From assembly GCA_003221995.1 (NCBI GenBank), contig QHUR01000033.1:1-44427 (forward strand): DNA of 44,427 nucleotides. The letters run 5' to 3'. Position numbers and translations under genes: made by a program. Origin of the DNA: Gemmatimonadota bacterium (GTDB lineage Bacteria; Gemmatimonadota; Gemmatimonadetes; Gemmatimonadales; GWC2-71-9). Positions 2,654 through 38,575 of the stretch are shown here, piece after piece (position 1 is the first letter of the stretch; each line of letters opens with the position of its first letter). Under the pieces are notes generated by a model, which saw only the letters and a program-made list of their open reading frames with translations, searched no databases and was not told the DNA's origin.

Positions 2654-3615
2654 GCTCCCCGGTGCTCGCGCTCGACCGGGTCACCAAGCGGTTCGCCGGC
2701 CACACGGCCGTAGACGGTCTGTCCCTCTCCGTGCCGCGCGGCGTCATCTACGGGCTGCTCGGCCCGAACGGCGCCGGCAAGACGACTACCATCCGGATGA
2801 TCATGGACATCATCGAGCCCGACGAGGGATCGGTGCGGCTGTTCGGCGAGCCGGGCACGGGCCGGGACCACTCGGCGCGCATTGGGTACCTGCCCGAGGA
2901 GCGGGGGCTGTACCGCAGAATGCGCGTGCTCGACTTGGTTGTGTTCCTCGCCGAGATGAAGGGCGTGGAGCGGCGGCGGGCACGGGCGCGCGCCGCGCTC
3001 TGGCTCGAACGGCTGGGCCTCGAAGCGTGGCGCCTGCGTCGCGTGGACGAGCTCTCGAAGGGCATGCAGCAGAAGGTGCAGTTCGTCTCGACCATCCTGC
3101 ACGAGCCCGAGCTCCTCGTGCTGGACGAGCCTTTCGCCGGGCTCGATCCCGTCAATACGCAGGTCCTGAAGGATGCGGTGGTGGAGCTGCGGCGCGATGG
3201 TGTCACGATCCTGTTTTCGACGCACATCATGGAGCAGGCGGAGAAACTGTGCGACCAGCTGTGCATCATCGCTCGCGGCAGGAAACTGGTGGACGGAGCG
3301 CTCGCCGACATCAAGCGGACACAAACAGGACACCATCTCGTCATCGGGTTTGACGGCGCTCCCGGGGCGGCAGCCCAACTGTTTGCAGACGAGCGGGTTG
3401 TGAAGAAGGTGGACGATTATGGCCAGTATGCCGAGCTCGAGCTCGCACCGGGCGCCGACGCGCAGCGTCTGCTGGCGGCCCTGGTGAACTCGGGGGCGCG
3501 GCTGGCGCGGTTCGAGCTCAGCGAGCCGTCGCTGAACAAGATCTTCCTCGACCTCGTGGGGCCGGAAGCGGCGACGCCCGCAGCGCGGCCCCACCCGGGA
3601 GGGGCTCGTGCGTAA
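2650..3615 (+). CDS. ABC transporter ATP-binding protein (ABC-2/NatA-YhaQ-like)
   Basis: Walker A GPNGAGKTT, signature LSKGMQQK, Walker B LLVLDEP; GTG at 2650 overlaps the sufU stop (GTGA). Confidence 0.92.
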   Translation: MSSPVLALDRVTKRFAGHTAVDGLSLSVPRGVIYGLLGPNGAGKTTTIRMIMDIIEPDEGSVRLFGEPGTGRDHSARIGYLPEERGLYRRMRVLDLVVFLAEMKGVERRRARARAALWLERLGLEAWRLRRVDELSKGMQQKVQFVSTILHEPELLVLDEPFAGLDPVNTQVLKDAVVELRRDGVTILFSTHIMEQAEKLCDQLCIIARGRKLVDGALADIKRTQTGHHLVIGFDGAPGAAAQLFADERVVKKVDDYGQYAELELAPGADAQRLLAALVNSGARLARFELSEPSLNKIFLDLVGPEAATPAARPHPGGARA

Positions 3616-4867
3616 GATCTGGGCCGTGATCCGGCGGGAGTTCGTGGAGCGGATTCGGAGCAAGTGGTTCTGGATTTCCGCGCTGCTCGGCCCCGTGTTT
3701 TTCGGCGCGATGATCGTCGTGCCGGTGCTGTTCGCGGGAGCCGGCGGCACGCGGCGGATCGCCGTGGTGGACGGGACCACGGGGGCGTTCGGGGCGCGGG
3801 TCGTCGCAGGCCTCCGCGGCGGCAAGATCTTTCGCGCGACCCGCGTGCCTGCGGGCGTGGGCGTGGTGGACTCGCTCACCCAGCTCGTGGGCGCGAAGCA
3901 GCTCGACGGTTTTCTCATCGTGACCGACGCGGTGGTCGAGACCGGCACAGCCGAGTACCGAGCGTCCAACGTGTCGTCGTTCCGCGACGTCGCGGAGCTG
4001 CAGGACGTGCTCGCCCGGGTCGCGGTAGCCGCGCGTCTCGAGCGCCAGGGGGTCGACCCCGCCGTGGTAGGGCGCGCCCAGCTCCGGATCAGCCTCGACA
4101 CGAAGAAGATCTCCGGCTCGAGAACGACGGGCGAGAGCGCCGCCCAGTCGTTCGCGCTTGCCTACGTCATGGGGGTTGTGCTCTTTCTGGTCATCACGAT
4201 TTACGGCGTGAACGTGATGAGCTCGGTGGTCGAGGAGAAGACGACCCGCATCGTCGAGGTGCTGGTGTCGTCGCTGCGACCGTTCCAGTTGATGATCGGG
4301 AAGGTGCTGGGAGTGGGAGCGGTGTCGATCTTCCAGTTCGTGCTGTGGGGACTCGGCGCGAAGCTGCTCCTATCGCAGCGCCAGGCGCTGCTCGCAGGTG
4401 TGGGCGGGGCGGAGGAGGCGCGCCAGGTGTTCCAGATGCCCCACCTCTCCGCCGCCACGCTGGGCGTGTTCCTTGGCTACTTCTTGGGTGGGTTCTTCCT
4501 CTATTCGGCGATGTACGCCGCCGTGGGCGCGATGTCCTCCAACGAGCAGGAGGCGCGCCAGGCGCAGCAGCCGGTCATGTTCCTGTTGATGATCGCCTAC
4601 GTCTCCATGTTCGGGCTCACGAACAACCCGGAGTCGACCTACGCGGTGACGCTGTCGCTGATTCCGTTCACCGCGCCGATCGCGATGCCGGTGCGCTGGG
4701 CGGCGAGCACGGTGCCAGCGGCCGAGCTGGTGGGTTCGCTCGGGCTGCTGGTGGCGGGCATCGTCGCAGTGACTTGGGTGGCGGCGCGGATTTATCGGGT
4801 CGGCATACTCATGACGGGGAAGCGGCCGAACGTTAGGGAGCTGGTCAGATGGGTTCGAGCCGGCTAG
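3608..4867 (+). CDS. ABC-2 transporter permease (NatB/YhaP-like)
   Basis: N-terminal TM helix, extracytoplasmic loop, VVEEKTTRIVEVL motif, several C-terminal TM helices; coupled to the ATPase gene. Confidence 0.9.
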   Translation: MRKIWAVIRREFVERIRSKWFWISALLGPVFFGAMIVVPVLFAGAGGTRRIAVVDGTTGAFGARVVAGLRGGKIFRATRVPAGVGVVDSLTQLVGAKQLDGFLIVTDAVVETGTAEYRASNVSSFRDVAELQDVLARVAVAARLERQGVDPAVVGRAQLRISLDTKKISGSRTTGESAAQSFALAYVMGVVLFLVITIYGVNVMSSVVEEKTTRIVEVLVSSLRPFQLMIGKVLGVGAVSIFQFVLWGLGAKLLLSQRQALLAGVGGAEEARQVFQMPHLSAATLGVFLGYFLGGFFLYSAMYAAVGAMSSNEQEARQAQQPVMFLLMIAYVSMFGLTNNPESTYAVTLSLIPFTAPIAMPVRWAASTVPAAELVGSLGLLVAGIVAVTWVAARIYRVGILMTGKRPNVRELVRWVRAG

Positions 4868-4875
4868 ACGGCGAG

Positions 4876-4933
4876 GGAGACGCGGAGACGCCGAGGAAGA
4901 CGCCAAGGTGCCGAGACGCTGAGTAGATGTGAG
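4876..4933. repeat. Left arm of nested inverted repeat (GAGACGC-rich) flanking the four-helix-bundle gene
   Basis: 4910-4933 GCCGAGACGCTGAGTAGATGTGAG is the reverse complement of 5398-5421 (23/24); 4884-4895 pairs with 5424-5435 (12/12); 4876-4883 pairs with 5448-5455 (8/8). Confidence 0.9.
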
Positions 4934-5015
4934 ATGCAAGCAGAAGGCGTAGGAAGGGGACGGCGCGCGCACTTTGGATACCGCGTTGTTGGCGTCGCCG
5001 TACCAGCTTGAGCCA

Positions 5016-5393
5016 ATGGCGCACTACAAGACCCTCAAGGCTTGGCAACATGCGCAGCGCCTCGCCATCGAATGCGTGAAAGCCGCTCGCGCGTTCCCTG
5101 ATTATGAACAGCACGCACTAGCAGATCAGTTGCGACGTGCTTGTTACAGCGTCCCCTTAAACATCGCCGAAGGCAACACTCGGCAGGGCTCGCGCGAATA
5201 CCGGCGGTTCCTGGACACGGCTCGGGGCTCGCTTGCCGAGGTGGAGACGATTATCGAGATGGCCCGCGAGCTGGAGTACATGAGGCCCGCCGAGTTCGGG
5301 CGCCTGGAAGCCTTGGTCAACGAAACGGGCAAGACCCTGTATGGGTTGCTTCGGAAGGTGAGCGGGGCGGCTGTAAGAACTCCTGCTACCTAA
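5016..5393 (+). CDS. Four helix bundle protein (23S rRNA-IVP / Avd-like family)
   Basis: YKTLKAWQ...FPDYEQHALADQLRRACYSVPLNIAEG...FLDTARGSLAEVET matches the family pattern; ATG at 5016 preferred over TTG at 4974. Confidence 0.92.
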   Translation: MAHYKTLKAWQHAQRLAIECVKAARAFPDYEQHALADQLRRACYSVPLNIAEGNTRQGSREYRRFLDTARGSLAEVETIIEMARELEYMRPAEFGRLEALVNETGKTLYGLLRKVSGAAVRTPAT

Positions 5394-5397
5394 GCTC

Positions 5398-5455
5398 CTC
5401 ACATCCACTCAGCGTCTCGGCGGCTCGGCGTCTCCCTAGTAGTCGGGGCGTCTCC
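5398..5455. repeat. Right arm of nested inverted repeat (GCGTCTC-rich) flanking the four-helix-bundle gene
   Basis: CTCACATCCACTCAGCGTCTCGGC (5398-5421), CTCGGCGTCTCC (5424-5435) and GCGTCTCC (5448-5455) are complementary to the left arm. Confidence 0.9.
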
Positions 5456-5460
5456 TCCCC

Positions 5461-5466
5461 TATTAT
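5461..5466 (+). promoter_or_regulatory. Putative -10 box for a leaderless mnmG transcript
   Basis: TATTAT 6 nt before the ATG at 5473; no Shine-Dalgarno upstream. Confidence 0.5.
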
Positions 5467-5472
5467 TGGGCC

Positions 5473-7344
5473 ATGCCTTTCGACTATGACGTCCTCATCG
5501 TCGGTGCCGGCCACGCCGGCTCCGAAGCCGCCGTCATGTGCGCCCGGCTCGGCGCACGCGCACTGCTGATCACTTCCAACCTCGACACTATCGGTCAGAT
5601 GTCGTGCAATCCGGCGATCGGCGGGATCGCGAAGGGGACTGTCGTGCGCGAGATCGACGCGCTGGGCGGTCTCATGGGTCGTGCCAGCGATCGTGCGACG
5701 ATCCAATTCCGGATGCTCAACCGCTCCAAGGGCCCGGCGGTGTGGGCGCCGCGCGCGCAGTGCGACCGCACGCTGTACCGCCGCGCGGTGCGGCAACTGC
5801 TCGAGGGGTTCCGCGATCTCGAGCTGACCCAGGGAATGGTCGCGCGGCTGGTCGTCCACGGGGACCAAGTCGGGGGGGTCGAGACAACCGATGGGCGCCG
5901 CTTCACCGCGCGGGCGGTGATCATCACGGCGGGCACGTTCCTGCGGGGTCGGATTCACGTTGGGACCGATACGGCGATTCCGGCGGGCCGGGCGGGTGAC
6001 CAACCGGCCGTCGAGATTGCGCAACACATTGCGGCACTTGGGCTTACAGTGTCGCGCTTCAAAACTGGGACGCCGCCTCGCGTGGACGGGCGGACGGTCG
6101 ATTGGTCCAAGGTGGAGCGACAGGACGGCGACGAGGATGAGTACCGCTTCTCGTTCTACGAACGGGTGGAGCGACCGCAGCAGTTGCCGTGCTGGATCAC
6201 GTGGGCCGGCCCTGCTGTAAAGGCGATCATCGAGCGGCACCTTAAGGAATCGGCGCTGTACGGTGGGGCGATCAGCGGGCGGGGTCCGCGCTACTGCCCG
6301 TCGGTCGAGGACAAGGTGGTGAAATTCCCGGACGCGAAGCGCCACCAGGTGTTCCTTGAGCCTGAAGGGCTGGATACGGCGGAGCTGTACGTGAACGGGC
6401 TGTCCACTTCCCTGCCCGTCCAGGTGCAGGTGGAGTTCGTGCACGCCGTGCCCGGGCTGGAGCGAGCGAAGCTGACGCGGCCGGGCTACGCGATCGAATA
6501 CGACTACTATCCCCCGACTCAGCTGACCCCGTGGCTCGAAACCAAGGCGATCGAGCACCTGTGGTTCGCCGGGCAGATCAACGGGACGACGGGCTACGAG
6601 GAGGCAGCGGGACAGGGAGTGGTCGCGGGAATCAACGCAGTGCGGCGCATCCGGGGGCACGAGCCGGTGGTACTGGGGCGGGACGACGCCTACATCGGGG
6701 TGCTCGTGGACGACCTGGTGACGCGGGGCGTGGACGAGCCGTATCGATTGTTCACGTCCCGCTCGGAGTTCCGGCTCCTGCTGCGCCAGGACAACGCGCT
6801 TCGGCGGCTGCTGCCCCTTGCGGAGACCCTGGGCTTGCTCACAGCGAGCGAGCTGCGTGTGGCGGAGCGGCGGCTCGGCGAGGAGGAGGAGGTGCTGGCG
6901 GCCGCGCGCGAGACGACGATCACCCCCGCACAGGCGGCGGGCGCGCTCGCGGCGACGGGAACGAAGCTGGTAGAGCCGGAGCGTGTGGCGTCCGTGGTGA
7001 AGCGACCGGGTGCATCGTTGGGGCAACTGCTCGCGGCGGCGGGGGCGGTACAGCAGGTGGAAGGCGACGTGGTGAGGTCGGCGGAGATCGAGCTCAAGTA
7101 CGAGGGGTATCTCGCGCGCGAGCGGGAGGCAGCGCGGCGCCTGGCGGAGCTTGCGTCGTTCGCGCTGCCGGGGGACCTGCCCTACCTCGAGCTGGCGAGT
7201 CTCGCGACGGAGGCGCGGCAGAAGCTCGACGTCGTACGCCCGACCTCACTGGCGCAGGCGGCGCGGATTCCGGGTGTGTCGCCGAGCGATCTGCACAATC
7301 TCGTGGTGGAGGCGACGCGCTGGCGGCGCCGGGAAGTGGCCTAA
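5473..7344 (+). CDS. mnmG: tRNA uridine-5-carboxymethylaminomethyl(34) synthesis enzyme MnmG (GidA)
   Basis: VGAGHAGSEAA, MSCNPAIGG, GPRYCPSVEDK, AGQINGTTGYEEAAGQG, PYRLFTSRSEFRL. Confidence 0.98.
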   Translation: MPFDYDVLIVGAGHAGSEAAVMCARLGARALLITSNLDTIGQMSCNPAIGGIAKGTVVREIDALGGLMGRASDRATIQFRMLNRSKGPAVWAPRAQCDRTLYRRAVRQLLEGFRDLELTQGMVARLVVHGDQVGGVETTDGRRFTARAVIITAGTFLRGRIHVGTDTAIPAGRAGDQPAVEIAQHIAALGLTVSRFKTGTPPRVDGRTVDWSKVERQDGDEDEYRFSFYERVERPQQLPCWITWAGPAVKAIIERHLKESALYGGAISGRGPRYCPSVEDKVVKFPDAKRHQVFLEPEGLDTAELYVNGLSTSLPVQVQVEFVHAVPGLERAKLTRPGYAIEYDYYPPTQLTPWLETKAIEHLWFAGQINGTTGYEEAAGQGVVAGINAVRRIRGHEPVVLGRDDAYIGVLVDDLVTRGVDEPYRLFTSRSEFRLLLRQDNALRRLLPLAETLGLLTASELRVAERRLGEEEEVLAAARETTITPAQAAGALAATGTKLVEPERVASVVKRPGASLGQLLAAAGAVQQVEGDVVRSAEIELKYEGYLAREREAARRLAELASFALPGDLPYLELASLATEARQKLDVVRPTSLAQAARIPGVSPSDLHNLVVEATRWRRREVA

Positions 7345-7347
7345 CGG

Positions 7348-7363
7348 TGTTTCACGTGAAACT
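7348..7363. promoter_or_regulatory. parS: parS site 1 (ParB-binding centromere-like palindrome)
   Basis: tGTTTCACGTGAAACt has a perfect 14-bp palindromic core of the chromosomal parS consensus and lies next to parAB. Confidence 0.95.
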
Positions 7364-7371
7364 GCCGCCCT

Positions 7372-7387
7372 CGTTTCACGTGAAACC
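7372..7387. promoter_or_regulatory. parS: parS site 2
   Basis: cGTTTCACGTGAAACc, identical core, starting 24 bp after site 1. Confidence 0.95.
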
Positions 7388-7479
7388 CACCGCTTTCCTT
7401 CCCCCATCCCTTACGCTATATTTGTGGGCCACTTAGCGAGTTGTCACGTAACATATTGTCCAATAACGAGTTCCAGGCC

Positions 7480-8301
7480 ATGTCTCGCGTCGTCGCGATC
7501 GCCAATCAGAAGGGTGGGGTCGGCAAGACTACCACCGCGGTGAACCTCGCCGCCTCCCTCGCGGCGGCGGAGCGCAAGACGCTCCTGATTGACGGGGACC
7601 CACAGGCCAACTCCACGAGCGGCGTCGGCATCGAGCGCGATCGCATCCGGCACTCCCTCTACGACGCGCTGCTCGACGGTCGCCCGCTCTCGGGCACGCG
7701 CTTCCCGCACGTGCACTTCCCGTTCCTGGATCTCGTGCCGGCCACCCAGGACCTCGTGGGAGCCGAGCTGGAGCTCGTCAACGTATCCGCGCGCGAATCC
7801 CGCATGCGGCGGGCCCTGGACGACGTGCGGGAGGACTACCACTACGTGATCATCGACTGTCCCCCGTCCCTCGGCCTCATCACGCTCAACATGCTCGCCG
7901 CAGCGGATAGCGTCGTGATCCCGATTCAGTGCGAGTACTACGCGTTGGAGGGACTCTCCCAGCTCCTCAACACCATCAAGCTCGTGCAGCGGAACTTCAA
8001 CCCCGCGCTCGCCATCGACGGCGTGCTGCTGACGATGTTCGACGCGCGGCTCAACCTCTGCAGGCAGGTGGCTGAGGAGGCGAAGGAGTACTTCGGGCCG
8101 AAGATGTTCGACATCACCGTGCCTCGGAACGTCCGCCTGGCGGAGGCGCCGAGCTTCGGAAAGCCGATCCTCTTATATGACGTGCAGTCCGTCGGAGCCA
8201 AGAGTTATCTCGCGCTGGCCCAGGAGCTGATCCACCGGGTGGAGCGCGCACCGTCCCCTGCCCCGCCTGCTGCTGAACCGCTGCCGGAGGTGCCTGCATG
8301 A
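7480..8301 (+). CDS. parA: Chromosome partitioning ATPase ParA (Soj)
   Basis: NQKGGVGKTTT deviant Walker A, IDCPPSLG, PIQCEYYALEG, PRNVRLAEAPSFG; ATG at 7480. Confidence 0.97.
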   Translation: MSRVVAIANQKGGVGKTTTAVNLAASLAAAERKTLLIDGDPQANSTSGVGIERDRIRHSLYDALLDGRPLSGTRFPHVHFPFLDLVPATQDLVGAELELVNVSARESRMRRALDDVREDYHYVIIDCPPSLGLITLNMLAAADSVVIPIQCEYYALEGLSQLLNTIKLVQRNFNPALAIDGVLLTMFDARLNLCRQVAEEAKEYFGPKMFDITVPRNVRLAEAPSFGKPILLYDVQSVGAKSYLALAQELIHRVERAPSPAPPAAEPLPEVPA

Positions 8302-9185
8302 CAGAGACCGCGCTAGGACGCCGTCGCCTCGGCCGGGGGCTCGAGGCGCTGCTCGGCCCCACCCGGGAGGAGGCCGAGCGAGAGGGAAGTCTCGTGGAAT
8401 TGCCCGTGCGGGAGATCCGCCCCAACCCATTCCAGCCGCGGCAGGATGTGGATGCGGCCTCGCTCGAGGAGCTGAAGTCTTCGATCCAGCAGGCGGGGCT
8501 ACTGCAGCCCGTGGTGGTGCGAACGGCGGCGAGCGGCGGCTACGAGCTGATCGCGGGCGAGCGGCGCCTGCGCGCCTGCCAGGCGCTCGGCTGGGAGCGC
8601 GTCCCGGCGGTGAAACGCGAAGTGGACGACCGCACCGTGCTGACGCTCGCCCTCATCGAGAACCTACAGCGCGACGACCTCTCCCCCGTCGACGAAGCCC
8701 GCGGCTACGACCGCCTCATCGCGGAGTTCAGCCTCACGCAGCAGGACGTGGCGGACGCCGTGGGGCGCGATCGCTCCACTGTCGCCAACGCGCTCCGGCT
8801 CCTGAAGCTGCCTGAGGCGGTGCTGGCGATGCTCCATGGCGGCGACCTCACCGTGGGCCATGCGCGCGCGCTCCTCGCCATCGAGGATCCCCGCACGGCG
8901 ACCACGCTCGCGCGGGAGGCGGTTGCGCAGGGGCTCTCGGTGCGCGAGATCGAGGACCGCGTGCGCGGGGGGCGCGCACCGGAGCGGCGCCCGCGCCTCA
9001 AGCGAGGAGTGGGACAGGCGCCCGAGGTGCGGCGCATCGAAGAGGCGCTGCGCCGCGAGCTGGGCACCGACGTACGGGTGACGCTGCGCGCGAAGGGGAA
9101 GGGGCAGATCCACGTCGCGTTCTACTCGAACGAGGACCTCGCGCGCTTGCTCGAGGTCTTCCTCGGAGCTCCGTTCGACGGATGA
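8298..9185 (+). CDS. parB: Chromosome partitioning protein ParB (Spo0J)
   Basis: LGRGLEAL, PNPFQPR, IAGERRLRA, ENLQRDDL, HTH (TQQDVADAVGRDRSTVAN). Confidence 0.97.
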   Translation: MTETALGRRRLGRGLEALLGPTREEAEREGSLVELPVREIRPNPFQPRQDVDAASLEELKSSIQQAGLLQPVVVRTAASGGYELIAGERRLRACQALGWERVPAVKREVDDRTVLTLALIENLQRDDLSPVDEARGYDRLIAEFSLTQQDVADAVGRDRSTVANALRLLKLPEAVLAMLHGGDLTVGHARALLAIEDPRTATTLAREAVAQGLSVREIEDRVRGGRAPERRPRLKRGVGQAPEVRRIEEALRRELGTDVRVTLRAKGKGQIHVAFYSNEDLARLLEVFLGAPFDG

Positions 9186-9976
9186 AGGACCGCGCCGTGA
9201 CGATCGTCATCCACACGGATGGCGATCTGGACTCGCGACAGTATCGGGTACCGGTGTGGGCGTTCGAGGCGGGGAAGTGGGGGGCGCTGGTGGTCGCCCT
9301 CCTGGTGGTCCTGTTCTTCGCCTTCGCGGGGCCGATCAGTCGCGCGGCGGCGCGCGTGCCCGGTCTGGAGCGGCAGGTGACGCGACTGCGCGAGGAGAAC
9401 AGCCAAGTGCAGCAGCTCGCCGCGGCGCTGAATCGGGCCGAAGAGAACTACCAGTCCCTGCGCCAGCTGCTTGGCGTGCGGGCGCCACCCGAGCGGACGA
9501 GCGCGAAGCTCGGACTAGAGCTGCTACGGGCGGTGGCGGTCCGCGCGCGCACACCCGCCGCTTCGCTGCGCTACGAATCGGGCCCCTCCCAGCCGACACA
9601 CTGGCCGCTCGACGTGAGCGGCTTCGTCACCCGAGGCCAGGTGCGCGCGGGGGACGCGGCCGAGTCGCATCCGGGCGTGGACATCGCCGTGCCCGAGGGC
9701 ACCCCGGTGCGTGCGGCGGGAGGGGGGATGGTGGCGGCTGCCGGCATCGATCCCGCCTACGGGTTGTTCGTGCTCTTGCGCCATGCGCAGGGGTATGAGA
9801 CGATGTACGGTCACGCCTCGCGGCTGTTGGTGCGCGAGGGGGACTCTGTGCAGGCAGGGCAGGTGATCGCGCTGTCCGGGACCTCGGGGCGATCCACGGC
9901 TCCGCACCTGCACTTCGAAATCCGCCGTGACGGACGGTCGCTCGACCCTCTCACCGTCGTGAAACAGGAGAACTGA
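9182..9976 (+). CDS. Membrane-anchored M23 family metallo-endopeptidase
   Basis: One TM helix, coiled coil, HPGVD (HxxxD) and STAPHLHFE (HxH) zinc motifs. Confidence 0.92.
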   Translation: MKDRAVTIVIHTDGDLDSRQYRVPVWAFEAGKWGALVVALLVVLFFAFAGPISRAAARVPGLERQVTRLREENSQVQQLAAALNRAEENYQSLRQLLGVRAPPERTSAKLGLELLRAVAVRARTPAASLRYESGPSQPTHWPLDVSGFVTRGQVRAGDAAESHPGVDIAVPEGTPVRAAGGGMVAAAGIDPAYGLFVLLRHAQGYETMYGHASRLLVREGDSVQAGQVIALSGTSGRSTAPHLHFEIRRDGRSLDPLTVVKQEN

Positions 9977-9977
9977 C

Positions 9978-10376
9978 ATGGCGATCTTCACCGAGAAGGG
10001 GCACGGCGCGCCGGAGTCCGAAGCCGGGCTCTCGATCATCGGGGCCGGCATGCGTGTGGAGGGCGATATCGTCGCCGAAGGGGTCGTGAAGATCGAAGGA
10101 ACGGTCGTCGGCACGGTGCGCGCCGGCCGCCAGGTGCTCGTCGCGAAGGGCGGCGAAGTAGAGGGGGACGTCATCACGAAGGAAGCCATCATTGGCGGCG
10201 AAGTGCGCGGCAGCGTGCGCGCGGAGGAGCGGATCGAGATTCAGGCGGCGAGCGTCGTTCACGGAGACCTCGCCTCGCGGCGGCTGCAGGTGCAAGAGGG
10301 GGGCGAGATCAACGGCGTGGTGCGGATGGGGGAGGGTGCATTGGAGAAAGAGCCTGAACACACGGGCTCCCGCTGA
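9978..10376 (+). CDS. Bactofilin (polymer-forming cytoskeletal protein)
   Basis: SIIGAGMRVEGDI...IEGTVVGTV...EVEGDV...GGEING beta-helical bactofilin pattern; follows an M23 gene. Confidence 0.93.
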   Translation: MAIFTEKGHGAPESEAGLSIIGAGMRVEGDIVAEGVVKIEGTVVGTVRAGRQVLVAKGGEVEGDVITKEAIIGGEVRGSVRAEERIEIQAASVVHGDLASRRLQVQEGGEINGVVRMGEGALEKEPEHTGSR

Positions 10377-14132: not shown

Positions 14133-15314
14133 ATGACGCTCGCAAGCGGCCTCACGGCGACCCGCCAGGCCGGCGCCCATCCGCTCGCCCGCTATCGGGG
14201 CGAGTTCCCGATCTTCCGGGACAAGATCTACCTCAATACCTGCTCCCTGGGCGCCCTGGGGGAGCGGACTCGCCGGCGCGTCGCCGAGTTCCTCGATCTC
14301 TGGCAGGAGCGCGGCGCGTCCGCCTGGTACGACGTGTGGTGGGCGGCGCTCGCGGAGCTGCGCCGGCGCTACGCGCGCGTGATCGGCGCGACCCCCGAGG
14401 AGATCGCGCTCGGCCCGAGCATCTCCGTCGCGCTCGCGTCCGTGGCGGAGGCACTCGACTATGGCAAGCGCCGTCGGGTCGTCGTCACCTCGCTCGACTT
14501 CCCCACGGTCGCCTACCAGTGGCTCGCGAAGCGGGCGCGGGGGATCGAGCTCGTCGTCGTCGAGAGCCCGGATGAGGTCACCGTGCCGGTGGAGATGATC
14601 GCCCGGGCGGTGGACGAGCGCACCGCGCTCGTGGCGACGTCCCACGTCTACTTCACGAGCGGAGCGATCCAGGACATCGCCGCCGTGGCCGAGGCTGCCC
14701 ACGCGAGCGGCGCGCTCTGCCTGATCGATGCCTACCAGTCCGTGGGGCAGGTACCCGTGGACGTGCACACGAGCGGGGTCGACTTCCTCACCGCGGGCGG
14801 CCTCAAGTGGCTGCTCGGCGGCCCGGGCGTGGTGTTCCTGTACGCGCGGGAGGAGCTGGCGCGCCGGCTCATGCCCGGCGTCGCCGGGTGGTTCGGGCAC
14901 CGGGACCAGTTCGCCTTCGACCCCCGGCGGCTCGAGTTTCACGACGACGCGCGGCGCTTCGAGCTCGGCACGCCGGCGCTCGCGGCGATCTACGCCCAGC
15001 TCGGCGGGCTCGACTACATCGACGAGATCGGGGTGCCGGCGATCCGGGGCGTCGCCGCGGCGCTGACCGAGGACCTGATCGCCCGCGCCCGGGAGCGGGG
15101 CTTCCAGCCCAAGGTCGCGGCGCATCCGCAGCAGCGCTCGGCGATCGTGATGCTCCCCGCCGCGGATCCCGCGGCCAGGGTGCGTCTGCTCGCCGAGGCG
15201 GGGATCGTCGCGGACGCCCGGCCCGGGCACGTGCGCCTCTCCCCATTCTTCTATAACGTGCAGGATGACCATGTCGCAGCGCTCGAGCGGCTCGCCACGC
15301 GCGCCGGTCACTGA
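14133..15314 (+). CDS. Aminotransferase class V-fold PLP enzyme (kynureninase-like)
   Basis: IYLNTCSLGAL, DFPT, IDAYQSVG, GGLKWLLGGPG (PLP Lys), RRFELGTP. Confidence 0.88.
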   Translation: MTLASGLTATRQAGAHPLARYRGEFPIFRDKIYLNTCSLGALGERTRRRVAEFLDLWQERGASAWYDVWWAALAELRRRYARVIGATPEEIALGPSISVALASVAEALDYGKRRRVVVTSLDFPTVAYQWLAKRARGIELVVVESPDEVTVPVEMIARAVDERTALVATSHVYFTSGAIQDIAAVAEAAHASGALCLIDAYQSVGQVPVDVHTSGVDFLTAGGLKWLLGGPGVVFLYAREELARRLMPGVAGWFGHRDQFAFDPRRLEFHDDARRFELGTPALAAIYAQLGGLDYIDEIGVPAIRGVAAALTEDLIARARERGFQPKVAAHPQQRSAIVMLPAADPAARVRLLAEAGIVADARPGHVRLSPFFYNVQDDHVAALERLATRAGH

Positions 15315-16010
15315 GGACGAACGCCTCCTCACGCCCACCCCCCATGCGGAGCGGCGGGGGTTCACGCGCACGGACCCGTGGCGGGTGCTGCGCATCCTGG
15401 GGGAGTTCGTGGAGGGGTTCGACACCCTCTCCGACGTCCACAACGCCGTCACCATCTTCGGCTCGGCGCGCACGCCGCCCGACGACCCGTTCTACGAGCG
15501 GGCGGTCGTGACGGCCCGGCTGCTCGCGCGCGAGGGGTTCCCCGTCATCACGGGGGGCGGTCCCGGTATCATGGAGGCGTCGAACCGCGGGTGCCAGGAG
15601 GGGAACGGGCTCTCGATCGGCTGCAACATCGAGCTGCCGTTCGAGCAGGGGATCAACCCCTACGTTGAGCGCGCGATCAACTTTCGCTATTTCTTCGTGC
15701 GCAAGACCATGTTCGTGAAGTACTCGACGGCGTTCATCGCCTTCCCGGGTGGGTTCGGGACGATGGACGAGCTGTTCGAAGCGCTGACGCTCATCCAGAC
15801 GGGAAAAGTGAAGCACTTTCCGGTCATCTTGTTCGGCAAAGCCTACTGGGCCGGCCTCGCGGAATGGCTGCGGGAGCGGGTGGCGGGGGAGGGGAAGATC
15901 GACACGGCGGACCTCGAGCTGTTTCACGTGACCGACGACCCCGAGGACGCGGTGCGCCGCTGCGTCAAGGCGCGCGCCCGTCGCACTGAATCCTTTGCGG
16001 TGGAGAGCCG

Positions 16011-16014
<4 letters not shown>
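15265..16014 (+). CDS. LOG family (TIGR00730-type) nucleotide phosphoribohydrolase
   Basis: [35 protein letters not shown]; start could be 15265 or 15271. Confidence 0.92.
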
Positions 16015-17130
<1,116 letters not shown>

Positions 17131-17150
<20 letters not shown>

Positions 17151-18636
17151 GCCCGGCTCCGAGCCCGCGCCCCCGAGGGCGTACGCCGTCTACGCCCTCG
17201 GGTTGCTCACGCTGATCAACCTCCTCAACTACACCGACCGCAACGTCGTCTTCGCGCTGTTTCAGCCGCTGAAGCGCGAGCTCGCGCTCACCGATCATGA
17301 GCTCGGCTGGCTGGGGTCGGCGTACGTGATCGTGTTGTCGCTCGCGGCGCTGCCGCTGGGCGTCGTGGGCGACCTCAGGTCGCGTCGTGCGGTCATCGCC
17401 TTCGGCGTGGGGCTGTGGAGCGCGTTCACGGCGCTCGGTGCCGCGGTGAAGGGCTTCTGGCAGCTCCTGGTGTGCCGGGCGATGGTGGGCGTGGGGGAGG
17501 CGGGCTACGGACCCGCGGCCCAGGCGCTGATCGCGGAATTCTTCCGCGGGCGGCGTCGCGCCTTCGCCATCGGGGTCTACTCGGTGGGTATGGCCTTCGG
17601 GGGCGTGCTCGGCATCTGGCTCGGCGGCGTGCTGGCCGAGCGCTACGGCTGGCGCGCCGCGTTCGTCGCGATGGGCGCCCCGGGGCTCGTGCTCGCGCTG
17701 CTCGCCTCGCGCCTGCGCGAGCCCCGGCGGCAGGCGCCGGCGTCCATTCGGGTCACGCTCGCACGCTGGTACGACCGCGGGGTCCGCAATGTGGTGTGGC
17801 CGGCGCTGCCGCTCGCGGGCCTCACGCTCGTCGGCGCCGCCGTGAGCGCTGTGATGGCGCTGTTCGAGCGCATTCCTTCGGGCGTGGACGCGGCGCTGTT
17901 CGGCGGCTTCGTGACGGTCGGCGTGGTGTGGACGGTCGTGCGGTTGGTGCCGATCGCCGTCCGGCGCACGACCGAGGCGAGCGCAGTGGCGGCGACCGCC
18001 TTCGACGACTTCCTCCAGGCCGCCGCAACGGTGCTGCGCACGCCGACCCTCGTCTGGATGTTCGTGGGCGGCGCCCTGGTGACCTTCGCGGTGAACGGGC
18101 TGATCGCGTGGGCCCCGAGCTTCATGGAGCGGGTGCACGGCTTCTCCGTCGGGCGCGTGGGCCGGGAGTTCGGGATCTGGGGGCTCGCCGGCGGCGCGCT
18201 CGGCGGGCTGTTCGGGGGGCGCGTGGGGGACTGGCTGGTGGGGCGCTGGCCCGGGGGGCGGGTGGTCGTGTCGGGAGCCGGGTTCGTGCTCGGCGGCCCC
18301 GTGTGCGCGGCGTTGCTGCTCGTCGACGAGCTGCGCTGGTTCGTGCCGCTCCTGTTCGCGACGTTCTTCCTCTACACCTGGTACAACGGCCCCCTCTCGG
18401 CCGTGATCCTGGACGTCGTGCCGCCCGAGGTGCGCGCCTCGGTGTTGGGCGCCTTCCTCCTGTTCTCCCATCTGGCGGGGGACGCGATCGCACCGCCGCT
18501 CGTCGGCTACCTGTCCGACCGCTTCGGGTTGCGCCCCGCGATGCTGCTGCTCCCGTCCGCGGGAGCGGTGGGAGGGCTGGTGATCTTGATCGCGCTGACG
18601 ACGGTGGGGCGGGATATGCAGCGGGTGAGGCAATGA
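17131..18636 (+). CDS. MFS transporter (spinster-like)
   Basis: [10 protein letters not shown] in TM1, GDLRSRR motif [21 protein letters not shown]; start is either CTG 17131 or TTG 17203. Confidence 0.88.
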
Positions 18637-18661: not shown

Positions 18662-19663
18662 GTGAAGATCGCCGTCCTGTTCGACACCCTGCACCCCGAG
18701 TGGAGCGACGCGGACTACAAGAAGGCGATCGAAGCCAAGGTCGAGGAGGCGGAGTACGACGTGGCGCGTGCGCTCGTCGCCAAGGGGCACGACGTGTTGA
18801 TGGTGGGCGTGCACGAGGCGCTCCAGCCGCTGCTCGATCGGCTCGCCGCGTTCCAGCCGAAGCTCGTGTTCAACGGCTGCGAGGGGTTCCGCGGCCGCGC
18901 CCACCACGAGTACGGGCTCGCCGCGGTGCTGGAGATGCACGGCTACCGCTACACGGGCTCGTCGCCCACCGGACTGCTGGTCGCGCGCAACAAGTCGCTC
19001 ACGAAGAAGATCCTCGCGTATCACGGGATCCGCGTCCCCGCATTCGCGGAGTTCCATCCCGGCGAGAAGCCGCTCCGGCCCTCGGAGCTCCGCTTCCCGC
19101 TGATCGTGAAGCCGCTGCTCGAGGACGCGTCGATCGGCATCGCCCAGGCATCGGTGGTCGAGGACGACCAGAGCCTGGCCGAGCGGGTGAAGTTCATCCA
19201 CGAGAAGTTCAACCAGGCGGCGATCGTGGAGGAGCTCATCGAAGGACGGGAGCTGTACGTGGGGCTGCTCGGCAACGACAAGCTGCAGGTGTTGCCGATC
19301 GTCGAGATGACGTTCGGCGAGGCGGAGGCGGCGGAGCAGCGCATCGCCACCTACAAGGCGAAATGGGACGAGGAGTACCGTAAGCGGAAGCGCATCAAGA
19401 ACGTGTTCGCGAAGGGCCTGGCCGACGACGTGACGGCCAAGATCGGGGACCTCTGCGCCACGGCCTTTCACGCGCTGTGGCTGCAGGACTACGGACGGGT
19501 TGACCTGCGGTTGACCCACGACGACGAGGTGTACGTGCTCGAGGTGAACCCGAATCCGTTCCTCGCGTTCGAGCACGAGATGGCGAACGCCGCCGAGAAG
19601 GCGGGCCTGTCGTACGACGATTTCATCCAGCGCATCGTGGACGAGGCGATGAAGCGTGGCTAG
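18662..19663 (+). CDS. D-alanine--D-alanine ligase-like ATP-grasp protein (non-canonical)
   Basis: YTGS, NKSLTKKIL, FPLIVKP, EDASIGI, EELIEGRE, YGRVDLR, VLEVNPNP; lacks the canonical Ddl GGxSxE and HGxxGEDG motifs. Confidence 0.88.
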   Translation: MKIAVLFDTLHPEWSDADYKKAIEAKVEEAEYDVARALVAKGHDVLMVGVHEALQPLLDRLAAFQPKLVFNGCEGFRGRAHHEYGLAAVLEMHGYRYTGSSPTGLLVARNKSLTKKILAYHGIRVPAFAEFHPGEKPLRPSELRFPLIVKPLLEDASIGIAQASVVEDDQSLAERVKFIHEKFNQAAIVEELIEGRELYVGLLGNDKLQVLPIVEMTFGEAEAAEQRIATYKAKWDEEYRKRKRIKNVFAKGLADDVTAKIGDLCATAFHALWLQDYGRVDLRLTHDDEVYVLEVNPNPFLAFEHEMANAAEKAGLSYDDFIQRIVDEAMKRG

Positions 19664-20651
19664 TCGGCGCGAGGTCCCGACCCCCGAACTCCGCTGCCCC
19701 ACGTGCCGGGCGGAGCTCGATCGGTTCTGGTCGTACTGCTCCGATTGCGGGCGCCGGCTCGAGTGGCGGGACGTCACCCGGGAGACCGGGGCCGAGTGCT
19801 ACTACTGCGGCTGGGTCGTCTCGGACAGCTTCTCTCACTGCCCGTGGTGCGGGCGCGACATCGCGGACCGGGACTCGAGCCCCGAGCCGCTCAAGGCGCC
19901 GAAGGGGTTCAAGTACCACCGCCGCTGCCGCTGGGGTTGCGGCGGTGGTGTGATGTATCCGATGCGCTACTGCCCGTGGTGCGGCCGGCCCGAGAAGTGG
20001 CGCCACGACGAGTTCCAGAACGTCTGCCCCCACTGCAACAAGGGCGTGGACGACTGGATGAACTGGTGTCCCTGGTGCGGCGAGGATTCCACCGGACAGG
20101 ACCTCGTCCGCCAGGCGCTCGCCCGGGCGCGCCGGCTGCTCGTGACGACGCGGATCAAGGACTGGCATTACCGCGTGTTGCTGCGGCCCGGCGTGTCGGG
20201 TGTCACGCACAGCTCGCCCAAGGTGATCGAGATCGAGCGGCGTTATGTGACGGGGAAACGGCGGCGCGACGAGATCTCCTGGACCATGCTCACGGGGCTC
20301 ATCCTGCACGAGCTCGGGCACTCGTTCCTGTTCCACAACTGGCGGTTGACCCGCACCGGCCGGTTCCGGCGGGCGTTCGGCGAAGTGCGCAAGGCCTACC
20401 GCGTGTCGGACTCGAAGTGGGTGGACTTCGAGATGCGCCACGTGACGACGACCTTGCCGAACTACGTCACCGCCTACGCGGCGACCCACCCGCAGGAGGA
20501 CTTCGCGGAGACGTTTCGCGTGTACGTCGTGCGGCGGGGCCGGCTGCGGGAGCTCTTCGGCGAGTTTGGCCGGAAGCGCAAGGGCGTGGTGCTGTTCGAG
20601 AAGTTCCTCGTGCTGCACGACTACGTGCGGTCGCTGTGGGGCTGGCGATGA
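19656..20651 (+). CDS. Four-zinc-ribbon protein fused to a putative zinc-binding metallopeptidase (Peptidase_Mx-like)
   Basis: Four paired CxxC units (CPTC/CSDC, CYYC/CPWC, CRWGC/CPWC, CPHC/CPWC), then HELGH and YAATHPQEDFAETF. Confidence 0.85.
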   Translation: MASRREVPTPELRCPTCRAELDRFWSYCSDCGRRLEWRDVTRETGAECYYCGWVVSDSFSHCPWCGRDIADRDSSPEPLKAPKGFKYHRRCRWGCGGGVMYPMRYCPWCGRPEKWRHDEFQNVCPHCNKGVDDWMNWCPWCGEDSTGQDLVRQALARARRLLVTTRIKDWHYRVLLRPGVSGVTHSSPKVIEIERRYVTGKRRRDEISWTMLTGLILHELGHSFLFHNWRLTRTGRFRRAFGEVRKAYRVSDSKWVDFEMRHVTTTLPNYVTAYAATHPQEDFAETFRVYVVRRGRLRELFGEFGRKRKGVVLFEKFLVLHDYVRSLWGWR

Positions 20652-21403
20652 AAGGCCGGGGACGAGGGAAGGGGGAAGCGGGACAGGGGAAGGGGCCTGC
20701 GGCGGGGGCGAAGCACATCGGGATCGTGGGGGTGAGCGCCGAGGGGGCGGCGCTGTGCTATCGCACGATCTGCAGCGAGGCGCCGCGCGTGATGGGGGAG
20801 CACAGCCATCCCGAAGTCACGCTCCATACCCACCCGCTCGCCGACTACATGCGTCACATCCGCCGTCACGACTGGCGGGGCGTCGCGGACTTGATGCTCT
20901 CGTCGGCCCGCAAGGCGGCGCAGGTCGGCGCCGCGTTCGTCATCTGCCCGGACAACACGGTCCATCAGGCGTTCGCGCTGGTGGAGCCCGAGTCCCCCAT
21001 CCCCTGGCTCCACATCGGCCGGGTCGTCGCTCGGGAGGCCGAGGGTCGCGGCTTCCGGCGGCTCGGGATCCTGGGCACGCGGTACCTGATGGAGGGCCCC
21101 GTCTACCCCGAGGCGCTCCAGCCCGCCGGGATCGCGACTTTGACCCCGGAGCCCTCCGAGCGCGCGCGCATCGACGCGATCATCATGGAGGAGCTCGTGA
21201 ACGGCCGCTTCCTCGAAGCGTCGCGGGCGTACTTCCATGACGTGATCACGGCGCTGGGCCGACGCGGCTGCGATGGCGTGGTCCTCGGCTGCACCGAGAT
21301 CCCGCTCATCGTCCGCGACGGCGCGGCCCCTCTCCCGGCGCTCGATTCGACCCGGCTGCTCGCGCGGGCGGCGCTGCGGGAGGCGGGCCTCACGCTCGGC
21401 TGA
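20648..21403 (+). CDS. Aspartate/glutamate racemase family protein
   Basis: HIGIVG, ICPDNTVH, LGILGT, VLGCTEIP, LDSTRLLA; ATG overlaps the peptidase stop (ATGA). Confidence 0.9.
   Translation: MKGRGRGKGEAGQGKGPAAGAKHIGIVGVSAEGAALCYRTICSEAPRVMGEHSHPEVTLHTHPLADYMRHIRRHDWRGVADLMLSSARKAAQVGAAFVICPDNTVHQAFALVEPESPIPWLHIGRVVAREAEGRGFRRLGILGTRYLMEGPVYPEALQPAGIATLTPEPSERARIDAIIMEELVNGRFLEASRAYFHDVITALGRRGCDGVVLGCTEIPLIVRDGAAPLPALDSTRLLARAALREAGLTLG
20659..20693 (+). repeat. Degenerate 7-bp tandem array (GGGAMGN-like x5)
   Basis: GGGACGA GGGAAGG GGGAAGC GGGACAG GGGAAGG. Confidence 0.75.
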
Positions 21404-33363: not shown

Positions 33364-35484
33364 ATGTCGACGCGCACCAAACCGCAGCCGAAGGCCGCCA
33401 AGCCGCTCGCCAAGGCGGACCTGCTCGACATGTTCCGCCTCATGTACCTCTCCCGCCGTCTCGACGACCGCGAGATCCAGCTCAAGCGCCAGAACAAGAT
33501 CTTCTTCCAGATATCGGGTGCCGGCCACGAGGCGGTGCTCGTCGCCGCCGGCAGGGTGCTGCACCCCACGTACGACTGGTTCTATCCCTATTACCGCGAC
33601 CGCGCCCTGTGCCTCGCCCTCGGCATGACGCCGACGGAGATGCTGCTTTCGGCCGTCGCCGCGGCCGACGACCCGAATTCGGGTGGCCGCCAGATGCCGT
33701 CCCACTGGGGCCACAAGGCGCTCCACATCGTGAGCCAATCGAGCCCCACGGGGACCCAGCTGCTGCAGGCGGTGGGCTGCGCCGAGGCGTGGCTGCGTTT
33801 CGATCGCAGCGACGGCATCGCGGAGAAGCCGATTCGCGGCGACGAAGTCGTCTACTGCTCCGGGGGCGACGGCACCACGAGCCAGGGTGAGTTCTGGGAG
33901 GCGATGAACACCGCGAGCAATCTGAAGCTGCCGGTCCTGTTTCTGATCGAGGACAACAAGTACGCGATCTCGGTGCCGGTCGAAGTGCAGACGGCGGGGG
34001 CCTCGGTGTCGAAGCTCGTGGCCAACTTTCCTGACCTCTTCATCGAAGAAGTGGACGGCTGCGACCCGATCGCGTCCTTCGAGACCCTGACCCGCGCGGT
34101 CGCGCACTGCCGGCAGCGCCGCGGTCCCGCCCTCGTGCATGCGCACGTCATCCGGCCGTACTCGCACTCGCTGTCGGACGACGAGGTGCTGTACAAACCG
34201 CCCAAGGAGCGTGAGGAGGAGTCGAAGCGGGACCCCATCGCGACGTTCTCCAAGCGGCTGGTGGCCGAGGGAATCGCGACTGCGGCGGAAGTCGAGGGGA
34301 TCAAGCAACAGGTGGACGAGGAGGTGGAGGTCGCGGCCGACATGGCGCTCGCCTCCCCCCAGCCCCAGCCCGAGACGGCGCTCCACTACGTCTACTCCCC
34401 TGACGTCGATCCCACGTCGGAGCAGTTCGACACCGAGGATGACCCCCAGTTCGCGGGGGATCCGACGACGATGGTGGACCTCCTGAACGTCTGCCTCAAG
34501 GACGAGATGGCCCGCGATCCGCGTATCCTCCTCTTCGGCGAGGACGTGGCCGACGTCAGCCGGGACCAGTACCTGGGCCAGGTGAAGGGGAAGGGCGGGG
34601 TCTTCAAGGTCACCTGGGGGTTGCAGCGGCAGTTCGGGAGCGGGCGGGTATACAACTCGCCGCTCGCGGAGGCGAACATCATCGGGCGGGCGATCGGACT
34701 CGCCACGCGGGGCCTCAAGCCGGTCGTGGAGATCCAGTTCTTTGACTACATCTGGCCGGCCTACCACCAGCTGCGCAACGAGCTCGCCACGCTGCGGTGG
34801 CGCTCGCACAACGCCTTCAGCTGCCCCGTCGTGGTGCGCGTGACGTATGGTGGTTACCTCAAGGGCGGGGCGATCTACCACTCGCAGACGGGCGCCGTCG
34901 TGTTCACCGCCATTCCCGGGCTCCGCGTCGTGTGCCCCGCAACCGCCCTCGACGCGAACGGCCTGCTCCGCACCGCCATCCGCTGCGACGACCCGGTCCT
35001 GTTTCTCGAGCACAAGCACCTCTATCGCCAGACCTACAACAAGGCGCCCAACCCCGGCCCGAACTTCATGATCCCCTTCGGCAAGGCCAAGGTAGTCAAG
35101 GAGGGGCCCGACCTCACGGTCGTGACGTACGGGGCCGTCGTGCACCGGGCGCTCCTCGCGGCGAAGGAACTCGAGGAGAGAGACGGTGTGCGGGCCGAGG
35201 TCATCGATCTGCGGAGCCTCTCGCCGATCGACTGGGACGCGATCGCCCGATCGGTGCAAAAGACCAGCCGGGTGCTCGTCGCTTACGAGGACGCGCGCTC
35301 CTGGGGCTACGGCGCCGAGATCGCGGCGCGCGTCGCGGACGAGGCGTTCTCGTGGCTCGACGCGCCGGTGAAGCGCGTCGCGTCGACCGATACGTTCGTC
35401 GGGTACGCCCCCACGCTGGAAGACTTCATCCTGCCGCAGGTGGAAGATCTCGCGCAGGCGATGCGCGAGCTGCATGCGTTCTAG
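33364..35484 (+). CDS. 2-oxoacid dehydrogenase E1 component, fused alpha/beta subunits
   Basis: [22 protein letters not shown]...[11 protein letters not shown] motif, [28 protein letters not shown]. Confidence 0.94.
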
Positions 35485-38400: not shown

Positions 38401-38575
38401 CGTACGCGGTCGGCCCGGCTGGTCGACGCTGCACGAGCTGCGCGCGTTCGCCGCGCTGCGGATGGGACGCTGCGATGTGGCGGTGAAGGAGTTCCTGCTG
38501 CTGCTCGACTTCGGGATCGAGCGCGACGACGGGCCCGACCTGGTGATGCGCTGCCGCCGTGGCCTGAAGCTCTAG
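35474..38575 (+). CDS. Fused multi-TM / spermidine synthase-like protein with helical C-terminal tail
   Basis: [63 protein letters not shown]. Confidence 0.88.

Follow-up and report, generated by a model that had tools for sequence, protein, structure and literature searches.

What reaction is carried out by an enzyme that has the fold of D-alanine–D-alanine ligase (Ddl) and a different substrate site, and why should its gene run into that of a metallopeptidase bearing four zinc ribbons? Both questions are raised by contig QHUR01000033.1 of assembly GCA_003221995.1, from a Gemmatimonadota bacterium of the order Gemmatimonadales. All 44,427 nucleotides of this stretch (positions 1 to 44,427, with a G+C content of about 70%, and referred to here as the window) were analysed. 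The two genes lie on the + strand at 18662-20651, and the original prediction had taken their products for a writer/eraser couple, a ligase and a hydrolase acting in opposite directions. The single most likely reading of the locus, a tentative one with synteny evidence that comes from one order, is indeed a ligase/hydrolase couple. Put more fully, and just as tentatively, the pair may constitute a translationally coupled, facultative ligase/amidase module, placed last in a co-directional run of conserved genes, that acts on a small amide, possibly one with a cationic amine. The couple is favoured because the translational coupling of the two genes persists among relatives, because a transporter of the major facilitator superfamily (MFS) is conserved beside them and because ligase-hydrolase fusions recur in neighbouring subfamilies. 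The coupling is obligate in neither direction.

The ligase and its acceptor site

The ligase gene and the motifs on which its assignment turns are the following.

18662-19663, + strand: ATP-grasp carboxylate-amine ligase of 333 amino acids (P0001), with a GTG start
18872-18886, + strand: NGCEG, residues 71-75, in the region of the Ddl motif HGxxGEDG
19352-19366, + strand: YKAKW, residues 231-235, in which K234 is the retained K215 of DdlB and W235 replaces Y216
19541-19579, + strand: EVNPNP, residues 294-299, followed by FLAFEHE, where DdlB has EANTSPG

Is this enzyme a Ddl? Databases label it 'D-alanine--D-alanine ligase (family protein)', and residues 120-326 match the Pfam domain Dala_Dala_lig_C (1.5e-28; 100.2 bits against a cut-off of 24). 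The AlphaFold2 model, with a predicted local distance difference test score (pLDDT) of 94.8, finds its nearest solved folds by Foldseek among Ddl enzymes (TM score of about 0.78, 23-25% identity, E 5e-25), and the top matches of the family profile in the PDB are only Ddl and VanA. The NCBIfam scores, however, are far under their cut-offs, with 129.4 against 243 for NF002378 and 120.5 against 245.65 for TIGR01205, and every Ddl, Van and D-Ala-D-Ser model among the best 25 of the 46 matched is likewise below threshold.

The nature of the active site was assessed in an alignment of Escherichia coli DdlB, the query and 107 full-length representatives of its clade, in which DdlB numbering is used. 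The ligase retains K97, K144, E180, E187, K215, R255, D257, E270 and N272, and each of these nine positions, which serve ATP and magnesium binding and catalysis, is shared by at least 98, and up to all, of the 107 representatives, so that the same acyl-phosphate chemistry as in Ddl is expected. Seven other residues are replaced, namely E15 by I, H63 by R, S150 by A, Y216 by W, G276 by F, S281 by H and L282 by E; these comprise the E15/S150/Y216 triad together with H63, G276, S281 and L282, the D-Ala-site residues of Ddl. The clade consensus departs from Ddl at D-Ala-site positions too. With its scores under the Ddl cut-offs and its D-Ala site replaced, the ligase is therefore not a canonical Ddl. 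The alignment upholds the view that the ATP core is kept and the D-Ala-binding motifs are lost, there being no GGxSxE, NGCEG in place of HGxxGEDG, and EVNPNP.

Within the clade residues F70 and N71 of the ligase are nearly invariant. A tryptophan stands at DdlB position 216 in 87 of the 107 representatives, and of the 120 closest homologues 114 have YKAKW and 119 have E[VA]NPNP. In this last region E294 and N296 are the magnesium ligands E270 and N272 of DdlB, and H305 and E306 replace S281 and L282, the two residues that in DdlB hold the carboxylate of the second D-Ala. An acidic residue occurs at one or other of these two positions in 89 of the 107 representatives and at both in 67. The protein as a whole is acidic in charge. 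Judged by its sequence, the ligase is an intact, active-looking ATP-grasp enzyme, a sister of Ddl whose acceptor site has been rebuilt. Two other assignments were tried and rejected: (i) membership of the RimK family, where the ligase has 33 bits against a cut-off of 143.4 for TIGR00768 and 18.4 against 21 for Pfam RimK, and (ii) a graspetide-type maturase of ribosomally synthesised and post-translationally modified peptides, as there is no precursor-peptide gene and no intergenic room on either side of the ligase.

The clade itself is large. At E<=1e-30 the ligase matches 1103 clusters (50% identity), with the best solved Ddl at 1e-18, and a FastTree phylogeny with DdlB as its root unites the query with all 107 representatives (support 0.999). 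Look-alike clusters in the Atlas are commonest in Planctomycetota, Aminicenantota, Myxococcota, Pseudomonadota and Gemmatimonadota. More distant are longer relatives of 30-37% identity, of which the 120 listed include tandem double ATP-grasp proteins, 21 fusions to an M20 metallohydrolase, eight to a KamA-type radical S-adenosylmethionine (SAM) aminomutase and three to 7TM_transglut (7TM standing for seven transmembrane segments). Given the M20 fusions, a ligase combined with a hydrolase is a design that recurs in this region of the superfamily.

What company do such ligases keep when they are not fused? Plasmids carry 14 records of relatives with 33-37% identity. The nearest with a readable context, from a Thioflavicoccus plasmid, is 34% identical, is placed as sister of the query clade (support 0.72) and has W at position 216. 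It is found in an operon with SbnA, an SbnB-like protein and a diaminobutyrate transaminase, with KamA adjoining, and these neighbours are all makers of cationic diamino acids. The cluster, at 3557-9038 of plasmid NC_019941.1 (L083), is compact, comprising the diaminobutyrate transaminase, SbnA, the SbnB-like cyclodeaminase, the ATP-grasp ligase and the KamA-family radical SAM protein, and looks like an uncharacterised pathway to a peptide from diaminopropionate, diaminobutyrate or a beta-amino acid. A symbiosis-type plasmid of Bradyrhizobium (NZ_CP088281.1, 2186-6951; L085) has an operon-like row of lysine 2,3-aminomutase, gamma-glutamyltransferase, 7TM protein and ATP-grasp ligase, the 7TM, ATP-grasp and KamA parts of which occur elsewhere as fusions. 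On a Sinorhizobium medicae plasmid an MFS gene lies near the ATP-grasp relative, and in Sinorhizobium fredii NGR234 the relative adjoins a CapA-family gene. This part of the superfamily thus repeatedly teams with makers of cationic amino acids, with hydrolases and with membrane proteins. Since the fused and plasmid relatives belong to other subfamilies, their contexts transfer weakly to the query ligase, and the substrate here is not fixed by them.

The four-ribbon peptidase

The second gene and its principal motifs are placed as follows.

19656-20651, + strand: four-zinc-ribbon Peptidase_Mx metallopeptidase of 331 amino acids (P0002), with an inferred GTG start
19695-20078, + strand: four Cys4 ribbons, residues 14-31, 48-65, 91-109 and 124-141, matching DZR, DZR_2, Zn_ribbon_3, Zn_ribbon_15 and DUF7575
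20307-20321, + strand: HELGH zinc-binding and catalytic motif, residues 218-222, with H218, E219, G221 and H222 invariant among 47 homologues
20487-20516, + strand: HPQEDFAETF, residues 278-287, with H278, P279, E281, D282, A284 and E285 invariant among the same 47

The ribbons are built from eight CxxC/CxxxC pairs at residues 14, 28, 48, 62, 91, 106, 124 and 138, of which three second-half pairs read CPWC(G). Among the 47 homologues 15 of the 16 cysteines are invariant and C14 is found in at least 90%, which is far beyond chance, and the array also has many invariant tryptophans and aspartates. Pfam matches to DZR (2.6e-12) and to Peptidase_Mx (2e-11; 44.2 bits against a cut-off of 27) are both above cut-off. 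The architecture of four Cys4 ribbons, three of them with CPWCG, ahead of a HELGH/HPQEDFAETF zincin thus stands as it was first read, and from its sequence the HPQEDFAETF motif likely supplies the third zinc ligand, a glutamate, in a gluzincin-like manner. The highest Kyte-Doolittle mean over 19 residues is 0.95, with no hydrophobic segment, and on this hydropathy measure the protein is consistent with a cytoplasmic location, in agreement with the earlier statement that it has no signal peptide. The catalytic half is strongly basic, with 37 lysines and arginines to 18 aspartates and glutamates, and the chain ends in ...SLWGWR.

What is the fold of the catalytic domain? The best of five AlphaFold2 models has a pLDDT of 70.8 and the other four have 49-53. 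Foldseek with this moderate model gave no PDB match at E<=0.001 and nothing significant among the viral models of BFVD, and its weak top folds, the Pro-Pro endopeptidase PPEP-3 (E 0.066) followed by lethal-factor-type zincins, represent a generic zincin fold only. By sequence profile the only solved relative in the PDB is 9urd (E 0.0013), a Bacteroidota-type 'substrate import-associated zinc metallohydrolase lipoprotein', whose EDF motif aligns with HPQEDFAETF. A survey of HExxH families predicts that the related DUF2248 proteins are lethal-factor-like zincins (PMC3650047). Searches of the PDB and the literature found no Peptidase_Mx member with a measured activity, and in the literature Peptidase_Mx was met solely as a clan name.

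The peptidase has a narrower distribution than the ligase. A word-index search gave 350 relatives, and the 120 listed are 60-98% identical to the query; those among them with a named source are from Gemmatimonadales, plus one from Kofleriaceae. In the Atlas a single high-scoring four-ribbon cluster has 1245 members and is commonest in Gemmatimonadota, with other Peptidase_Mx clusters at similarities of 0.81-0.85. One cluster of proteins of about 167 residues with Peptidase_Mx alone, at a similarity of only 0.85, has 38% viral members (Uroviricota). Against plasmids a tblastn search with the peptidase gave no match, and in PHROGs matches were to the ribbons only.

Could the ribbons recognise a modified protein? 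In such a scheme of protein tagging the ligase would add residues to a protein carboxylate or to a lysine side chain, the ribbons would dock and the zincin would remove the tag. Zinc ribbons often serve to bind proteins and nucleic acids, and the invariance of the cysteines and of many tryptophans in this array would fit such a use, just as the basic peptidase domain would suit an acidic tail or tag. There is also precedent in LysX/LysW/LysK, where the ligase is of the ATP-grasp type, the carrier is a zinc ribbon and the third component is a metallohydrolase. The ligase, however, is Ddl-like and falls well short of the RimK-family threshold, the operon holds no candidate substrate gene and has only 25 nucleotides between MFS and ligase, the ...SLWGWR end of the peptidase is not an acidic carrier tail, and the ligase is widespread without this peptidase. 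Protein tagging is considered unlikely.

Gene order and the case for a couple

The neighbouring genes that bear upon the pair are these.

14133-15314, + strand: kynureninase-like class-V pyridoxal-phosphate enzyme (best PDB match 1qz9, 5e-35)
15265-16014, + strand: type-II LOG protein (PDB match 5zi9, 6e-83)
16011-17150, + strand: deoxyhypusine-synthase-type homospermidine synthase (NF001980, 548.6 bits against a cut-off of 450)
17203-18636, + strand: MFS transporter (MFS_1, 4.3e-54)
20648-21403, + strand: Asp/Glu-type amino-acid racemase (TIGR00035, 129.4 against a cut-off of 93.1)

With the ligase and peptidase between the last two, these genes form a tight co-directional string. The MFS stop is separated by a gap of 25 nucleotides from the ligase start, about 10 nucleotides 5' of which there is a GGAGG, and the ligase stop (TAG, 19661-19663) lies beyond the inferred GTG of the peptidase at 19656, giving the 8-nucleotide overlap reported originally. 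At the other end the peptidase and racemase genes share 4 nucleotides, where the stop of the one meets the ATG of the other. Third-position GC is 0.94 for the ligase and 0.93 for the peptidase, the level of real genes in the window. The LOG and homospermidine synthase genes overlap by 4 nucleotides as well, and a functional reason for their pairing is not evident.

Is this order maintained elsewhere? The genome scan by peptidase confirmed 395 relatives, of which the best 80 were used; none of these 80 has less than 75% identity to the query, and one, at locus L001, is 98% identical to it. By title the 80 loci are Gemmatimonad-type, the exceptions being an 'uncultured bacterium' and a contig of 2.4 kb that was binned elsewhere. 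The ligase lies directly 5' of the peptidase in 69 of the 79 loci that have enough upstream sequence; co-occurrence in other genomes had been set beforehand as a test of the couple. Among the 52 ligase-peptidase junctions scored by script, 40 overlap by 4-17 nucleotides and five have gaps of 4-41, and the remaining seven gave implausibly long overlaps that are put down to crude start picking by the script. Where at least 3.7 kb of upstream sequence is present, homospermidine synthase is found in all 66 loci and the MFS gene in 65 of the 66, which bears out the association proposed for the transporter. Of the 61 loci that reach 5.7 kb or more upstream, 53 have the full string from kynureninase-like gene to ligase and six have the same string minus the ligase.

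The contig binned elsewhere (L067, assigned to a Krumholzibacteriia bin) carries a ligase-peptidase pair 76% identical to the query that is nested among Gemmatimonadales in the tree, and a binning error is more likely than gene transfer. Of the 70 peptidases that are not in the ligase-less group described below, one has an in-frame stop in the aligned region, which may mark a pseudogene or a sequencing error.

The racemase, by comparison with its neighbours 5' of the pair, is rarely there. Matches occur in 2 of the 80 loci (L001 and L014), among the 72 loci whose downstream sequence is 800 nucleotides or longer it is adjacent to the peptidase in one, and the gene 3' of the peptidase is variously BaxI_1, DUF481, FG-GAP, an SSF symporter, HEAT repeats or NUDIX. 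The racemase is therefore not part of the system, and the suggestion that it supplies a D-amino acid has been abandoned. The same evidence touches on a role in peptidoglycan metabolism, in which the ligase might represent a Ddl that has diverged, or else attach side chains in the manner of D-aspartate ligase, an enzyme that works with an aspartate racemase, and the peptidase would act on cell-wall peptides. In favour of this, every one of the nearest solved structures and sequences is a Ddl or a VanA, and in this genome an Asp/Glu-type racemase does overlap the peptidase stop. Set against it are the low NCBIfam Ddl/Van scores and the replaced D-Ala residues, the scarcity of the racemase, the absence of mur, fts and ddl genes from the entire window (as had been claimed for mur and fts), and an MFS protein with no AmpG-type match among its best 25 NCBIfam hits. 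A peptidoglycan role is judged very unlikely. An AmpG-type muropeptide recycling cluster was rejected on that same MFS result, and anti-phage defence was rejected in that PADLOC returned no family for ligase, peptidase or MFS.

Several observations weigh against the couple, the first being that the peptidase is found without the ligase. In 10 of the 79 loci (L030, L033, L035, L039, L040, L041, L045, L048, L049 and L076) the fetched sequence has no ligase and the MFS gene abuts the peptidase; all ten peptidases keep the 16 cysteines, HELGH and EDFAE with no stop, so the peptidase does not need an adjacent ligase. A quick peptidase tree requires at least three changes for the ligase-less state (a clade of eight, L033 and L076). 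The converse is true of the ligase, which is multi-phylum where the four-ribbon peptidase is one Gemmatimonadota-centred cluster, and which, to judge from its look-alikes in several phyla, must in most lineages function with this peptidase absent. Peptidase_Mx is on none of the 120 listed longer ligase relatives, and neither the NPNP motif nor the acidic pair is present in the relatives that are fused or plasmid-borne, which fall outside the query clade. The order shared by 80 close relatives may be inherited rather than selected. With respect to the substrate, the basic peptidase domain does not suggest a cationic one, and the kynureninase-like and LOG genes have no evident tie to such chemistry.

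Are the two genes, then, simply neighbours? It is possible, if doubtful, that they are functionally unrelated and that their adjacency and overlap reflect operon packing inherited within one order, with the ligase a housekeeping enzyme whose role is common to its many relatives in other phyla and the peptidase, for example, a regulatory or quality-control protease like the cytoplasmic lethal-factor-like zincins. This would account for the three or more losses of the ligase beside an intact peptidase and for the very different phyletic breadth of the two genes; identity to the query is nowhere below 75% among the examined loci, the rest of the string mixes unrelated functions, and the ligase is conserved much as its housekeeping neighbours are (75-87% identity across loci, with 82-91% for homospermidine synthase). 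It accounts less readily for an overlap that persists across the order in 40 of 52 junctions, or for the ligase-less peptidase having been re-coupled to the MFS gene, with a 4-nucleotide overlap in four of the seven such junctions scored by script; ligase-hydrolase fusions, moreover, are known in related subfamilies. The writer/eraser proposal survives in part: adjacency and overlap speak for it, and the loci without a ligase and the unequal phyletic breadth speak against.

How might a ligase/amidase couple work? The ligase would follow Ddl in forming an acyl-phosphate and in transferring its acyl moiety to an amine, and the rebuilt acceptor site would lead to a product other than D-Ala-D-Ala. 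The acceptor may be positively charged, being a diamino acid, a polyamine such as homospermidine or a lysine-type side chain, because (i) there are acidic substitutions at the carboxylate-binding positions of Ddl, (ii) homospermidine synthase is encoded two genes upstream, and (iii) the nearest sister, in Thioflavicoccus, has a diamino-acid context. The peptidase would be a cytoplasmic gluzincin-like hydrolase that cleaves or trims the amide made by the ligase, the four ribbons would be its binding or regulatory module, and the MFS protein would move the compound or a precursor. We infer all the substrates, the direction of transport and the action of the peptidase on the ligase product.

A bolder version, and quite an improbable one, sees here a reversible conjugation cycle for a cationic metabolite that is core to the physiology of Gemmatimonadales. 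The ligase would acylate homospermidine or a diamino acid, the MFS protein would move the conjugate and the zincin would be the matching amidase, with the Trp- and Asp-rich ribbons binding polyamine or sensing the zinc or redox state and so gating hydrolysis. If this were true, the 1103 clusters of the ligase clade would constitute a class of ATP-grasp enzymes, hitherto unrecognised, that acylate amines.

Why does the function matter? The ligase represents a very large multi-phylum clade without a solved structure or an assigned reaction, and identification of what it ligates would put right a database label that is widely in error and could yield a new reaction for ATP-grasp enzymes. The peptidase, with its four ribbons and Peptidase_Mx domain, is a predicted cytoplasmic zincin that is conserved within, and specific to, one lineage, the Gemmatimonadota, an abundant and poorly studied soil phylum. 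Should the pair prove to make and break a polyamine or diamino-acid conjugate in a cycle, this would amount to a regulatory metabolite system of a new kind; if there is no cycle, what is left is an ordinary pair of uncharacterised neighbours.

The remainder of the window is of a housekeeping nature, including suf genes, mnmG, parAB, a bactofilin gene and lon. At 5443-10376 (+ strand) mnmG/gidA, parA, parB and the bactofilin gene stand in a row, as is typical near the chromosomal replication origin, and the cumulative GC skew rises steadily along the window. A second polyamine-related gene occurs at 35372-38575 (+ strand), an open reading frame of 1067 amino acids whose product has Spermine_synth as its sole Pfam match (residues 583-735, 2.8e-9) and is a large, probably membrane-bound polyamine-synthase-like protein.

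Relation to known systems

Which known systems does the locus resemble? With Ddl and VanA the ligase shares the three-domain ATP-grasp fold, the Pfam C-terminal domain and the ATP, magnesium and catalytic residues. It differs from them in its low sequence identity, in belonging to a separate clade, in the replacement of the D-Ala residues and in its lack of a cell-wall gene context. The fusions of ATP-grasp with M20, with KamA and with 7TM modules, at 30-37% identity, are closer to the query than is any solved Ddl, and they combine a Ddl-like ligase with a metallohydrolase, with a radical SAM enzyme forming beta-amino acids or with a membrane module. They differ in having an EINSMA-type motif and not NPNP, in lacking the acidic pair, in their position outside the query clade and in a hydrolase that is M20 and not Peptidase_Mx. 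No characterised member of these fusion families was found in the searches made.

For the logic of adding and removing, the closest parallels are RimK/RimB and LysX/LysW/LysK, in which an ATP-grasp ligase is co-encoded with a hydrolase that removes what the ligase adds; the LysW system employs a CPxCG-type zinc ribbon in a small carrier with an acidic tail. The logic is alike, but here the ligase is not of the RimK type and the ribbons are fused to the peptidase. No substrate or carrier protein with an acidic tail is encoded nearby, and there is no room for a small gene around the ligase. A further parallel is glutathionylspermidine synthetase/amidase, where an ATP-dependent ligase amidates a polyamine and the paired amidase reverses the reaction. 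It resembles the preferred mechanism and recalls the homospermidine synthase neighbour, although here there are two separate genes, the hydrolase is a zincin rather than a CHAP enzyme, and a polyamine substrate is speculative.

On the side of the peptidase, the Pseudomonadota Peptidase_Mx proteins, formerly DUF2248 (PF10005 + PF15887), likewise have an N-terminal zinc ribbon followed by a zincin with HExxH and an EDF-type motif; theirs is a single ribbon, whereas here there are four, of other Pfam types, and the Atlas similarity is 0.81-0.85. The Mx1 proteins of Bacteroidota share HExxH and the EDF-type motif and are lipoproteins, whereas the protein here is predicted to be cytoplasmic and scores 29.9 against a cut-off of 75 for TIGR04549.

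In the PDB and the literature, with supplementary files outside the search, no solved structure or paper was found for the family of either protein, in keeping with the original statement that no characterised example is known. Literature searches likewise found nothing linking ATP-grasp ligases with homospermidine or with beta-lysine or aminomutases, and nothing relevant on homospermidine in Gemmatimonas. A 2009 survey of amidoligases by Iyer et al. reportedly describes ATP-grasp ligases co-encoded with peptidases, and the pairing as such is a known, predicted theme. What is new is the combination, in which a sister of Ddl with an NPNP/W216 site is encoded together with a four-ribbon Peptidase_Mx protein.

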